Positions 13,038-62,168 of a DNA stretch of 64,000 nucleotides are shown piece after piece. This stretch comes from an uncultured Acidobacteriota bacterium. Lineage in GTDB: Bacteria > Acidobacteriota > Thermoanaerobaculia > Gp7-AA8. The notes below the pieces were generated by a model. That model made no database searches. It was not told the DNA's origin and saw nothing but the letters and a program-made list of their open reading frames with translations. Position numbers and translations under genes: made by a program. The stretch covers positions 32,001-96,000 of the forward strand of contig CAVUKB010000010.1 in the NCBI GenBank assembly GCA_963741955.1, read 5' to 3'. Position 1 is the first letter of the stretch. Every line of letters starts with the position of its first letter.

Positions 13038-13191
13038 AGCGGCGAGCGGCAGTGAGGGGACCCCGTACCTGCCACAGGCGAGATCATGAATTTTATTCTG
13101 CAATACATCGAGAACTGCGCATTATCGTCGCTGAACTAATCATTTCGGTGAATAATATTCGCATAGTTGCGGTCGTTACAGAACGAATGCG
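13037..13191. repeat. Heptamer repeats plus AT-rich cassette with 31-bp-phased GAAT-N3-ATTC-like boxes
   Basis: Boxes start at 13088, 13119, 13150 and 13181; ungapped similarity to the reverse complement of 61916-62047. Confidence 0.75.
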
Positions 13192-51831: not shown

Positions 51832-53180
51832 CGCGATCGACGATCACCCTCCTTCTGGTAGCCGGGATCACATATGCGGCGCGCTCGTTCATTCCCGCCG
51901 GCGAAGCGGGAACGAGCTCCGGAACCACTCTCGCCTTCGGGTTTCTCCTCGTCGCGGCGATCCAGGCGGGTCACGTCTTTCACGGCCTGAAGCTTCCGCA
52001 CCTGACCGGATTCATTCTCTGCGGACTCGTGTTCGGTCCGGAGATCACGGGCCTCGTCTCCCACACCATGGTAGCGGATCTGACGCTGATCAAAGGGGTG
52101 GCCATCGGCTACATCGCACTTCTCGCCGGCTGTGAGCTGAACCTTCGAAAACAGAAGATGAGGCTGCGAAACATCCTCTCCTACTGGTTCTTCGGACTGA
52201 CCGCGGCGGCAGTGCTTCTCTTCATCGCCTTCTTCTTCATGACCGGCTGGCTGCCGCTGACTTCTTCGATGACATTGCTGGAGCGGGCCGCGGTTTCGCT
52301 GGTTTGTGCCAACGTACTCTGTGCCTTCTCCTCACCGGTGGTGATCGGAATCATCAACGAGGCGAAAGCGAGTGGTCCGTTCAGCGAGATCGCGATCTCG
52401 GTCGCGGTTCTCGCCGATCTCACGGTCGTGGTGACGTTCTCGCTGAGCAGCTTTCTCGCAAGGGCGGTCTTTCCGCAGCAGAACGCACCGGGCGGTCTTC
52501 GCGTGCTGATCCTCCACATCTTCGGATCGATGGTGGTGGGGTTCGTCGTGGGAACGGTTCTGTCGCTCTACATGCGGCTGATCGGAACCCGCACCGGCCT
52601 GTTCATCTTCGCGGTCCTTTTCGTGGTCGCCGAGGCTGGACGGGTGCTGTATCTCAATCCACTCCTGGTCGGTCTGAGCGCAGGCTTCTTCCTGGAGAAC
52701 TTCTCGTCCGTGCGAGGTCACGAAGTGGCGGAGCAGTCGAGACCTGCGATTCTTCCGACCTACGCAATCTTCTTCACCGTGATCGGCGCGGAACTTCACG
52801 TGAGAGCATTTCTCGCCGTCGCGCCGTTCGCACTCCTGGCCGCAACGACCCGGGCCGCGGGCATTTTTACCGGGTCGTGGCTGGGGACGAAGTTCGCTCG
52901 CCTCGAGCACGACGTCTCGCGTTACATGCCGTACGGCATGTTTCCGCAGGCTGGAATCGCGATCGCACTCGCCACGCTGGTCCTGAACGAGTTCGGAGAA
53001 TGGGGAGCGGTGGTCGGCACGGTGCTGTTCGGCAGCATCGTGGTGAACGAGATGATCGGCCCGATCCTTTTCCGCGGAGCGATCGGTCGGGCCGGCGAGG
53101 CAGGACGCACCGAAAGCCCCGAACCCGCAGGGGAGGCCAGACACGAGGCTCGAGGCTTGAGGCTAGAGGCTCGGGACTAG
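51828..53180 (+). CDS. Cation:proton antiporter (CPA2-like)
   Basis: LPHLTGFILCGLVFGP, IALLAGCEL, FFTVIGAEL, PQAGIAIALA and NEMIGP motifs. Confidence 0.82.
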   Translation: MTRSTITLLLVAGITYAARSFIPAGEAGTSSGTTLAFGFLLVAAIQAGHVFHGLKLPHLTGFILCGLVFGPEITGLVSHTMVADLTLIKGVAIGYIALLAGCELNLRKQKMRLRNILSYWFFGLTAAAVLLFIAFFFMTGWLPLTSSMTLLERAAVSLVCANVLCAFSSPVVIGIINEAKASGPFSEIAISVAVLADLTVVVTFSLSSFLARAVFPQQNAPGGLRVLILHIFGSMVVGFVVGTVLSLYMRLIGTRTGLFIFAVLFVVAEAGRVLYLNPLLVGLSAGFFLENFSSVRGHEVAEQSRPAILPTYAIFFTVIGAELHVRAFLAVAPFALLAATTRAAGIFTGSWLGTKFARLEHDVSRYMPYGMFPQAGIAIALATLVLNEFGEWGAVVGTVLFGSIVVNEMIGPILFRGAIGRAGEAGRTESPEPAGEARHEARGLRLEARD

Positions 53181-53346
53181 AGGCTCGAGGCTAGCGGACC
53201 GCGGCGGGAGAATAGAATTCGTATTTTCGGTCCTCGAACTGAATTTCTTTCTGAAAAGTGATGAATATGAAGAATAAAACCTTCACTCTTCACTTTCGAG
53301 GCTCGAGCCTCGGACCTCGAGCCTCGAGCCTCGAGCCTCGAGCCTC
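53145..53346. repeat. Inverted GAGGCTN heptamer arrays enclosing an AT-rich 31-bp-phased cassette
   Basis: 7 GAGGCTN-type units at 53145-53193; boxes at 53210, 53241 and 53272; 6 GAGCCTC-type units at 53305-53346. Confidence 0.85.
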
Positions 53347-54426
53347 GGATCCCGCGTCTCCCGGTTCTCCCGGGGCCAGCTCCTCCCCCGGGCGTCGCGG
53401 TTTTCCGAGATCCGCGAAGTCGCGCATGTGTACGGCGAGGCCGTAGTCGGGAAGGTTGCGCGTGAAGCCCGCGACGAGCTGATTGTTGTAGTGCGCCAGG
53501 AAGAAGTCGAACGGATCACTCGGATCGGTGTCGATGACCTCCATTTCGGCCCGCACCATGAAGAGCTTCCCCATCCTGAGAGTGCCGTTCTTGAAGAACA
53601 TGTAGTTTTTTGCTTCGACCGGGAGGGAGAGTTTCGCCATCTTTTCCGGTGAGCCGAAGATCTGGACCATCTCGTCGGGAGTGATCTCGATTCCGGTCAG
53701 CGTTCCCTCCATCGCCGGTGGAGGGAGGAGCTTCAGCGGATCGAGAAGGAGGTCGTTCTTTTCGGCACGAACGCCTTTCGCTTTGCTCAGATCCAGAAAC
53801 TTTTCCAGAGAGATCCCGACCGCCTTCATCAGACCTTTTCCGTTCAGGCCGCAGATCCGGATGCTGGTCGGATGAAGACGGATCTCTCCTCCGGGGGTGA
53901 CGCTCACGTCGGCGAGGAGGGAGAAGGGGATGTCGATGACCTTGTGGATGATCCCTTCCTGTTTCAGCTGTCCGTTCTGCATGGAGACGGTCAGGTCACG
54001 CAGCGGTGCCCCAGGGTAGTTGAACACGTAATGGTTCATCAGGTCGGTCAGGCTTCGTCCATCCACGCCCACTCTCGCGTACGCGATCTCGATCACGAAG
54101 GAGCTCGGGTCGTCGAAGTTGAGAGGCGTTCCGATCTCCTTGTCGTGCATCTCGGCGAGGAGCTCGTGCACGTGGAGGATGATCGTAGGGTCGATGCGGA
54201 AGAGGACGTTCCGCATCTCCGTCGCCGTCTTCTTCGCCGGGATCGCTTCCTTCGGAACGTCGAACGTGGCATAGCCGACAGACGATACCGGTGCGGGTCG
54301 CGGAATGCCGTCGTTCGCGGGGGGGCGCGGGACGCAGCAGCAGGCGGGAAACAGCAGGAGCGAGAGGATGACGAGAGCGGCGACCGTAAAGAGGATCGCA
54401 ACGGTCCCGCGTCTTTTCCATCTCAT
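53290..54426 (-). CDS. Hypothetical exported/membrane-anchored beta-rich protein
   Basis: Hydrophobic N-terminus ending FPACCC and a globular-looking composition; C-terminal tail encoded by heptamer repeats. Confidence 0.75.
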   Translation of the reverse strand: MRWKRRGTVAILFTVAALVILSLLLFPACCCVPRPPANDGIPRPAPVSSVGYATFDVPKEAIPAKKTATEMRNVLFRIDPTIILHVHELLAEMHDKEIGTPLNFDDPSSFVIEIAYARVGVDGRSLTDLMNHYVFNYPGAPLRDLTVSMQNGQLKQEGIIHKVIDIPFSLLADVSVTPGGEIRLHPTSIRICGLNGKGLMKAVGISLEKFLDLSKAKGVRAEKNDLLLDPLKLLPPPAMEGTLTGIEITPDEMVQIFGSPEKMAKLSLPVEAKNYMFFKNGTLRMGKLFMVRAEMEVIDTDPSDPFDFFLAHYNNQLVAGFTRNLPDYGLAVHMRDFADLGKPRRPGEELAPGEPGDAGSEARGSRLEARGPRLEPRK

Positions 54427-61404: not shown

Positions 61405-61873
61405 ACTCACTGCGGCGCTTCTGATCGCTGCGGCGGGTGTGATGGCCGTTTACCGGGTCGGCTATCTCCCTTACGAGTGCAACATCCTGAAGAAGGAGGT
61501 CGACGTCGAGACGCGGCGCGGCCTCGGATACGGCATGGCCGCAATTCTTCTCTCCCGGCAGAACCTTCCGCGGATCGAGGCGTGTCTCCGTTGCTCGCGA
61601 ACAGACGCAGGGCTGTGGGTCCTGAAGGGAGCGAACGAAGTGATGTCGGGCAATCGTGACGCCGCCATCGCCAGCTTCGAATCTGCGTTCCGCTACCGGC
61701 ATCAGCCGGAGATCCTGGTGAATCTAGGCAACCTGCATCTCCAGGAAGGGAAGCGGGAGCTCGCGATGGAGGAGTTCGTCCGAGCGGTCCGCTTCCAGCC
61801 ATCGTTATTGAATGACGTCCACCCTTCGGAGCGCGCCGAGGTCCGGAAGCGGGTCGAAGAACCCAGAGGCTAG
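61388..61873 (+). CDS. Membrane-anchored TPR protein
   Basis: N-terminal hydrophobic helix and TPR (PEILVNLG...AMEEFVRAVRFQP); overlaps the ligase stop. Confidence 0.75.
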   Translation: MNRLIRLTAALLIAAAGVMAVYRVGYLPYECNILKKEVDVETRRGLGYGMAAILLSRQNLPRIEACLRCSRTDAGLWVLKGANEVMSGNRDAAIASFESAFRYRHQPEILVNLGNLHLQEGKRELAMEEFVRAVRFQPSLLNDVHPSERAEVRKRVEEPRG

Positions 61874-62078
61874 AGGCTGGAGACTCGAGGCTCGAGGCTG
61901 GAGCGGCCGGAGATTATTCGTTCTGTTTCACCGGCCTTAATGCGAATATTATTCGGTAGACTTGCATCTTTACAGACAATAATTCTGTATTGATGGCTGG
62001 TCTCGGAATTTTCTTCAGCGATTCTCCTGCGGTCGGTACGGTCATTCGCTCGCCGCTCGCCGCCTGCCGCTCGCCTCT
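61866..62078. repeat. Heptamer arrays enclosing an AT-rich 31-bp-phased cassette
   Basis: 5 GAGGCTN-type units at 61866-61900; boxes at 61913, 61944, 61975, 62006 and 62037; CTCGCCG-type units from about 62049. Confidence 0.8.
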
Positions 62079-62168
62079 CCGTCCGGCCTGTATTTTCTTA
62101 TCCCCTTCGAGACACTTCCTGACATGCAGTTCGACGAGGGATCACTCGAGGAGAAAAGGAAGAGACCA

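Follow-up and report, generated by a model that had tools for sequence, protein, structure and literature searches.

The DNA analyzed here, hereafter the window, is a 64,000-nt stretch (G000:C10:32001-96000) of the genome of an uncultured Acidobacteriota bacterium (G000; 5.44 Mb, 63% GC, 16 contigs), and its feature of interest is a small AT-rich island at 53209-53283. This island occupies the whole 109-bp gap separating the ends of two convergent genes, one encoding a Na+/H+ exchanger family protein and the other a 378-aa protein with no match in Pfam or NCBIfam (Table 1). GC content is 31.5% across 53210-53282, where an initial annotation made from the sequence alone had estimated ~32%, and the three boxes described there are found at the positions given, in their 11-bp forms GAATAGAATTC (53210), GAATTTCTTTC (53241) and GAATAAAACCT (53272), with a step of exactly 31 bp. 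The inverted GAGGCTC arrays said to bracket this core were likewise recovered with Tandem Repeats Finder (TRF), on opposite strands. The same annotation took the boxes for candidate Lrp/AsnC sites laid out for DNA wrapping, and suggested that their cassettes may be repeat-borne; the present analysis supports the first of these proposals, as a prediction that extends to cooperative binding, and does not support the second, while a third, that the cassettes organise the chromosome and are no ordinary operators, stands as a hypothesis.

Across the genome, the core of these boxes is strongly over-represented. Exact GAAT-N3-ATTC occurs 114 times, including 45 occurrences with an all-A/T centre (GAATWWWATTC), for which 30 local-composition shuffles gave an expectation of 0.7-1.6 and a maximum of 4, and eight control palindromes of the same composition occurred 0-2 times each. 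With its flanks, the core extends to a 13-bp palindrome, AGAATWWWATTCT, which is identical to the second of the two forms in which the E. coli Lrp consensus is given (yAGhAwATTwTdCTr / AGAATwwwATTCT, PMC5554404). Sites were scored with a 13-mer position weight matrix built on the seed cores (iterative refinement of this matrix was dropped, having drifted to a codon-like GAA..TTC pattern with 1587 sites), and 761 sites of at least 8 bits were retained in the genome. Distances of up to 200 bp between these sites comprised 53 pairs at 31 bp, 26 at 62 bp and 26 at 3 bp, followed by 8 at 28 bp and 5 at 30 bp, with all other distances represented by three pairs or fewer; the pairs at 3 and 28 bp may reflect one AT-rich box matched in a second register. 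Shuffling in local-composition blocks of 20, 40 or 100 bp (30 shuffles) yielded on average 0.3-0.5 pairs at 31 bp (maximum 2) and 0.0-0.4 pairs at 62 bp, and it was this genome-wide comparison that had been set beforehand as decisive. The peaks anticipated at 31, 62 and 93 bp thus appeared for the first two distances and not for the third, where a single pair was counted, which indicates that the lattice ends at three sites. Strong sites belong almost entirely to this lattice (44/45 at ≥20 bits, 49/52 at ≥18 bits). Overall, the motif and its lattice are confirmed as real and far beyond chance.

Grouping these sites gave 48 clusters with a 31- or 62-bp pair, or 47 cassettes once a copy on contig C15 is set aside. 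The latter (C15:41-115, at the edge of a 12.8-kb contig) has the same three site scores as the cassette at C5:878978-879052, and is probably an assembly duplicate or repeat copy. Counting from the strongest site of each cassette, positions -62/-31/0/+31/+62 are occupied (≥6 bits) in 12/21/47/23/13 of the 47 cassettes and positions ±93 in 0-1 of them (background rate 0.001), so that a cassette typically has three positions, with two in some cases and four in rare ones. The middle site ranks weakest in 13 cassettes and strongest in 14. All in all, cassettes are AT-rich islands within a 63% GC genome, and this AT content is unevenly distributed along the spacers: the AT fraction reaches 0.77 at a distance of 10-11 bp from the box centre and drops to 0.32-0.37 at 14-17 bp (permutation p = 2e-4, 58 units), with maxima at 0, ~10.5, ~20.5 and 31 bp. 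Maxima recurring once per turn are expected where the minor groove faces a protein surface, i.e., in bent or wrapped DNA. The AT content of the spacers is thus phased with the helix, as would be expected of wrapped DNA. Two further observations concern boxes. Five tandem ~120-bp units at C7:668379-669075 each include a GAATATTC-containing box (9.4 bits), with GAGGCT arrays between the units, long CGTCTCT-type arrays after them and no Rfam match; their boxes are spaced by 119-122 bp, hence do not form a 31-bp lattice. A GATC/Dam-type switch, as occurs in pap, was considered for the boxes and rejected, GATC being present in just 4 of 113 lattice boxes.

A PF01037 search detected two Lrp/AsnC genes in the genome, both on contig C1, and none in the window, in agreement with the initial annotation. 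The first of these, which encodes a 152-aa protein, is our candidate for the cognate regulator. Among solved structures, this protein is closest to E. coli Lrp (2gqq, E = 1.7e-27), and its best NCBIfam match is also Lrp, with a score (111.7 bits) under the equivalog cut-off (233) that makes it a member of the family and not a proven Lrp ortholog. The gene has a lattice of its own upstream: a 22-bit box lies 36 bp before its ATG, an 8-bit box stands 31 bp further up, and a weak position falls over the ribosome-binding region.

This association between box pairs and lrp-like genes extends well beyond the present genome. A metagenome scan for paired exact cores at a 31-bp spacing, the sole criterion applied, yielded at least 119 stretches, of which 80 loci were analyzed (the scan had no control spacing, hence this count is no measure of enrichment and the evidence lies in the adjacency to Lrp homologs). 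A homolog of the 152-aa protein adjoins the box pair in 41 of the 80 loci (E-values of 1e-13 to 3e-51), 38 of these at E ≤ 1e-30, and in 40 of the 41 cases the centre of the pair is located between -42 and +100 bp from the 5' boundary of the homolog's open frame. Among the 39 loci lacking a homolog, 15 have the pair less than 500 bp from a sequence end. None of the 80 loci matched G000 by blastn (E ≤ 1e-10), and their GC content ranges from 22 to 68%; adjacency maintained across such a range suggests that the 31-bp box pair is a widespread lrp autoregulatory operator. One metagenome contig of 2.4 kb and 60% GC, on which there is no Lrp homolog, carries five CGAAT...ATTCG-type boxes ~31 bp apart between coding regions (L077:733-930), and shows multi-site lattices of the motif in other high-GC organisms.

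Taken together, the match to the E. coli consensus, the lattice, the phase of the AT-rich positions, the lattice upstream of the lrp-like gene and the 41 metagenome loci make it likely that the island is a cooperative binding array for the genome's own Lrp-type regulator. The cassette is thus best read as an Lrp-type cooperative array, a known kind of operator: proteins of this family are described as binding, as cooperative dimers, to sites whose centres lie two or three helical turns apart, and as wrapping DNA (PMC2995911). From this organization we infer binding, oligomeric state and wrapping by the Lrp-type protein as follows. Each 13-bp palindrome would be bound by one dimer, and the 31-bp centre spacing, equal to three turns of 10.3 bp, would align three dimers, all belonging to one higher oligomer, along a single face of the helix, with the AT-rich positions 10-11 bp from the box centres allowing ~75-95 bp of DNA to bend round the protein. 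The effect of such a complex would then be set by its position, and those cassettes that face a gene start could act as amino-acid-responsive operators, as at lrp.

Table 1. Positions of the boxes, neighboring genes, arrays, further window cassettes and Lrp/AsnC genes (window coordinates unless a contig is named).
Feature	Position	Strand	Details
Box 1, AGAATAGAATTCG	53209..53221	none	16.8 bits as 13-mer; best-scoring site of the cassette
Box 2, TGAATTTCTTTCT	53240..53252	none	10.7 bits as 13-mer; box 1 + 31 bp
Box 3, AGAATAAAACCTT	53271..53283	none	9.3 bits as 13-mer; left half-site alone kept; box 2 + 31 bp
Na+/H+ exchanger family protein (PF00999), 450 aa	51828..53180	+	Convergent gene upstream of the island
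378-aa protein	53290..54426	-	Convergent gene downstream of the island; stop codon 7 bp from box 3
Left heptamer array	53144..53192	+	Unit CGAGGCT, 7.0 copies (TRF)
Right heptamer array	53296..53347	-	Unit CGAGGCT on the opposite strand, 7.4 copies (TRF)
Second window cassette	13087..13161	none	Boxes 13087 (20.6 bits) and 13149 (19.4 bits), 62 bp apart; weak middle position 13118
Third window cassette	61943..62017	none	Boxes 61943 (19.8 bits), 61974 (13.7 bits) and 62005 (11.6 bits), 31-bp steps
Lrp-type gene, 152 aa	G000:C1:120873-121331		Candidate cognate regulator
Second AsnC-family gene	C1, ~266.1-266.6 kb		PF01037

We evaluated the distribution of cassettes relative to genes using contexts from a crude gene caller based on GC content at third codon positions (GC3). 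All but one of the 47 cassettes are intergenic, with 18 in convergent, 21 in tandem and 7 in divergent regions, and 28 of these 46 face a gene start. Convergent regions represent 21.6% by number and 23.9% by length of the intergenic regions of at least 100 bp, and are thus modestly over-represented among cassettes (p = 0.007 and 0.023, respectively), as they also are with a stricter gene caller (19/47 convergent, p = 0.005 and 0.030). Within the 21 tandem cassettes, the stronger outer site is proximal to the downstream gene in 8 and distal in 13 (p = 0.38). The 33 flanking genes that were run against Pfam or NCBIfam (29 with their 5' end toward the cassette, and 4 window genes with their 3' end) form a mixed set, which includes pheS, an Opp/Nik-type ABC permease, 4-hydroxyproline epimerase, an acrylyl-CoA reductase family protein, a zinc alcohol dehydrogenase, two short-chain dehydrogenases, RNase III, RmuC, CinA, a glycogen debranching enzyme and a response regulator, together with several genes without a match.

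The two other cassettes of the window differ in completeness. The initial annotation had the 31-bp lattice recurring at both places, which holds for the three boxes at 61943-62017 and only in part for 13087-13161, where two strong boxes stand 62 bp apart around a weak middle position. The former has a TPR gene and a response-regulator gene as neighbors, both on one strand, is flanked by arrays at 61865-61903 and 62047-62079, and is preceded by an extra weak box at 61908, 35 bp upstream and thus off its lattice; the neighbors of the latter, again on one strand, are an alpha-amylase-family gene and a glycogen-debranching-enzyme gene. All three window copies had been placed at gene 3' ends, but two of them are also upstream of a gene, in a tandem context.

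Several observations weigh against an Lrp-type operator array at this locus. The convergent gap has no annotated start, so that the island does not lie in a control region as an Lrp/AsnC operator would, and the same is true of a considerable share of the set, since 18 of the 46 intergenic cassettes (this one included) are convergent, which is unexpected for promoter operators. Tandem cassettes have no consistent site polarity toward the downstream gene, and the genes facing cassettes display no strong amino-acid theme, all of these contexts being moreover dependent on the crude GC3-based caller. At the level of the sites, the 13-mer scores (Table 1) leave box 3 as a mere half-site, and the lattice offers three sites only where an octamer has four dimers. 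The 152-aa protein itself scores below the NCBIfam equivalog cut-off for Lrp. For E. coli Lrp, many occupied sites have been described as having no regulatory effect, yet binding is enriched in regulatory regions (10.1101/276808).

To follow the cassettes across relatives, we used the pattern GAATWWWATTC-N20-GAAYNNNRTTC, counted on both strands. This pattern has 18 matches in G000 and none in any of 123 other genomes of the same taxonomic family (39 other genera), so that the further copies sought in relatives were not found there. A look-up of the orthologous site in relatives matched the right-hand gene alone, in 5 other genera and with a different synteny, and no box above 10.3 bits was present near these matches. 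The regulator has a comparable distribution: its best matches in the 123 family genomes are only 34-40% identical, which designates them as paralogs (present in 38 genomes at E ≤ 1e-15, all without the lattice pattern), and closer homologs were found in two genomes from other families of the class (49-52% identical) and in Desulfobacterota and Acidobacteriota records (43-55% identical, from a peptide-pattern scan of genome contigs). These tallies include three unpublished genomes (G024, G055 and G104), on which no conclusion rests. The co-occurrence of regulator and cassettes in one lineage only is suggestive, and as a single event (n = 1) it counts as a further point of reserve on the assignment above.

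Could the boxes serve another protein, either the second AsnC-family protein or an unrelated dimeric regulator recognizing AT-rich palindromes, with a merely coincidental resemblance to the Lrp consensus? The existence of a second Lrp/AsnC gene and the sub-cut-off score of the 152-aa protein both leave room for this option, but the lattice sits upstream of the 152-aa gene itself, and it is homologs of this very protein that adjoin the box pair in half of the metagenome loci analyzed, mostly at E ≤ 1e-30. In addition, the 38 family genomes with 34-40% identical paralogs, possibly orthologs of the second AsnC-family protein, all lack the lattice. We therefore regard recognition by another protein as very unlikely.

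The heptamer arrays around the island raise a different question, namely whether the cassette is part of a repeat. In the window, GAGGCTCGAGGCT (≤1 mismatch) is found 12 times for 0.33 expected, and the arms of the arrays at 53144-53347 can pair into a ~45-bp stem (z = -9.2 as RNA, -9.8 as DNA). Both arrays also extend into coding sequence: the stop codon of the plus-strand gene (53178-53180) is inside the left array, which therefore encodes the C-terminal tail of its product, and the right array is wholly within the 3' end of the minus-strand open frame, giving the two convergent proteins array-encoded tails (...HEARGLRLEARD and ...SEARGSRLEARGPRLEPRK). A total of 53 predicted genes in the genome have an array in the last 60 nt of their frame. 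More generally, 7 bp is the commonest tandem period of the genome, with 782 arrays totaling 33 kb and many GC-rich unit types, and 464 of the 630 arrays with 2.5 copies or more lie mainly in intergenic DNA or at the ends of genes, 3' ends being preferred. Among regions of at least 100 bp, arrays are present in 72/433 convergent, 129/1087 tandem and 33/481 divergent ones.

Two loci illustrate other settings of these arrays. The Acido-Lenti-1 RNA motif (RF01687) is present in five tandem copies at C1:122811-123527 (47.1 bits each for a gathering score of 37), with heptamer arrays of unequal length between them; this locus is ~1.5 kb downstream of the Lrp-type gene. At C5:1238988-1239280, inverted GGGGTCG-type arrays surround a core with inverted, AT-richer GCAGAAT-type heptamers, in an element without Lrp boxes or Rfam match.

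An array lies within 120 bp of only 22 of the 47 cassettes (on both sides in 14), compared to 234 of all 2001 intergenic regions of at least 100 bp. GAG-phased arrays were also detected in 16 of 18 sampled genera from the same family, all 3 genomes from the same order and 2 of the 9 genomes taken from other families in the class, and none of these 30 genomes has the 31-bp lattice pattern. Array units moreover vary from locus to locus (GAGGCTC, GAGGATC, GAGAGGC and many others). Flanks are complementary in few cassettes (4/47 at z ≤ -4 and 7/47 at z ≤ -3, against 3/120 and 5/120 control regions), the island at 53209-53283 ranking second in this respect. The flanking arrays are an intergenic repeat of a separate kind, found throughout the lineage, and their presence in genera without cassettes, together with the scarcity of complementary flanks, indicates that the inverted bracket is local and not part of what defines a cassette.

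These results bear directly on the proposal that the cassette is the present or past cargo of a mobile repeat ending in inverted heptamer arrays, i.e., a MITE (a miniature transposable element with inverted repeats) or a repeat resembling repetitive extragenic palindromes (REP) and bacterial interspersed mosaic elements (BIME), in which case the boxes would be sites for a transposase or host factor. The bracket and its stem, the proximity of arrays to nearly half of the cassettes, the AT-richness of cassettes in a GC-rich genome and the ~10 Y1-transposase (PF01797) domains encoded there (e.g., C7:941635-941979, C10:469871-470206 and C6:499864-500208) would all be consistent with such an origin, as would a pair of duplicate cassettes 870 bp apart (C5:761969-762043 and C5:762840-762914) with 29 of 36 spacer positions identical (null maximum 24). 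Yet this pair, which has a predicted gene of ~280 aa between its copies, is the only detectable cassette duplication: the spacers of all other cassettes are no more alike than column-permuted controls, so that copies cannot be aligned as in a REP/BIME family. A MITE was rejected likewise, as array units differ between loci and bodies are unrelated, and so was a REP/BIME mobilized by a Y1 (REP-associated tyrosine transposase, RAYT) enzyme flanked by repeats, since a period-7 array is found within 1 kb of only 3 of 10 Y1-transposase domains compared to 19.5% of random windows. With array units specific to each locus, arrays common in genera without cassettes and complementary flanks at few cassettes, a repeat-borne cassette, as initially proposed, is poorly supported, and we consider it highly improbable.

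Equally poorly supported, and the least probable of these explanations, is the idea that the island acts through an RNA product (such as a small RNA, a long hairpin transcript or a repeat-spacer RNA made by processing, with boxes acting as RNA-level or promoter elements), since the strong folding of the 211-nt stretch relative to shuffles (z = -9.2) is due to the heptamer arms, which most cassettes lack, and not to the cassette, the association of heptamer arrays with a known small-RNA motif concerns a locus elsewhere in the genome, and conserved palindromes with helical phasing are properties of double-stranded DNA. Scans at the locus point the same way: no sigma-70-like promoter was predicted across 52800-53700, the single terminator-like site of this region is outside the island (none within 53140-53350), Rfam gave nothing at gathering thresholds over the window and only hairpin-like matches far below threshold at the island, and ARAGORN detected no tRNA in the window. 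A CRISPR array was rejected as well on the layout of the repeats: such arrays have many direct repeats of 23-47 bp with unique spacers, and those found here are 13-bp palindromes with 18-bp spacers, in two to four copies.

If the island is a binding array for the Lrp-type protein, what could it do between two convergent genes? The convergent enrichment makes a non-promoter role plausible for copies such as this one, which might tentatively act as an insulator, as an anchor for bridging or as a block on read-through, and we favour this reading slightly over two others. That it controls a transcript as yet unannotated, or an antisense one, seems somewhat doubtful, and about as doubtful is the notion that this copy has no selected effect. 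It is tempting to speculate further that ~47 dedicated three-site wrapping cassettes, about two-fifths of them convergent and some in the loop of hairpin-forming heptamer arrays, and an Lrp-type protein whose gene was found in no other sampled genome of the family form genome-wide, amino-acid-responsive nucleoprotein knots, which would block read-through, insulate supercoiling or anchor bridges, as an Lrp counterpart of the IHF-BIME (RIB/RIP) system that arose by selection on sites and not by repeat copying, but we think this broader scenario rather unlikely.

Three traits are unusual here: the arrays are both strict and numerous, they are confined to one lineage along with the regulator gene, and convergent copies are in excess. 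Lrp sites in E. coli have been called degenerate and difficult to predict (10.1101/276808), and the present genome is the opposite case: with 47 strict 31-bp arrays, a limit of three positions and spacers in helical phase, geometry, cooperativity and wrapping could be read from sequence. The 18 convergent copies moreover provide a defined set for considering roles of Lrp-type proteins away from promoters, a question that weak motifs blur in E. coli, and the joint presence of regulator and cassettes in one lineage, neither having been detected elsewhere in the sampled family, leads one to ask how so many multi-site arrays can arise once a regulator has been gained.

Compared to known systems, the flanking arrays resemble the heptamer tandem repeats described elsewhere (TAACTGA in Beggiatoaceae, PMC4679880; heptameric repeats, PMC4692102) in their head-to-tail period of 7 and their concentration in intergenic DNA, and differ from these accounts in having GC-rich units, in often overlapping open frames at their 3' ends and in being common to most genera of the family. 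As for the cassettes, arrays of E. coli Lrp share with them the 13-bp palindrome centred on AT-rich bases, the repetition of sites along one helical face and a regulator gene with its own sites. By contrast, the sites described here are crisp, strictly spaced by 31 bp and usually limited to three positions, whereas E. coli sites are reported as degenerate (10.1101/276808); furthermore, 39% of arrays are convergent, and the 152-aa protein falls below the equivalog cut-off and shares ~50% identity or less with any relative found.

Sites of archaeal Lrp-type proteins are known from single control regions or chromatin immunoprecipitation (ChIP) peaks, unlike the 47 arrays of identical layout found in this bacterial genome. 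Ss-LrpB reportedly binds three boxes with a weak middle one. A genome-wide study of this protein reports, in its title, binding events that go beyond the direct regulation of transcription (PMC4046817). As described for Ss-LrpB and FL11 (PMC2995911), archaeal systems otherwise share with the cassettes clustered imperfect palindromes two or three turns apart, cooperative dimers and a wrapping deduced from geometry.

Finally, the RIB/RIP elements (BIME-1) of E. coli have an IHF site between two inverted REP units and are found at the 3' ends of transcription units (PMC3333891, referring to Boccard and Prentki, 1993). BIMEs form an alignable family, which the cassettes do not, inverted flanks are limited to 4-7 of the 47 cassettes, and an Lrp-type protein would take the place of IHF. 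Nevertheless, the copy at 53145-53346 shares with RIB/RIP, as described there, a putative nucleoid-protein site between inverted GC-rich repeats in an extragenic position near gene 3' ends, and RIB/RIP would thus be its closest functional analogue.

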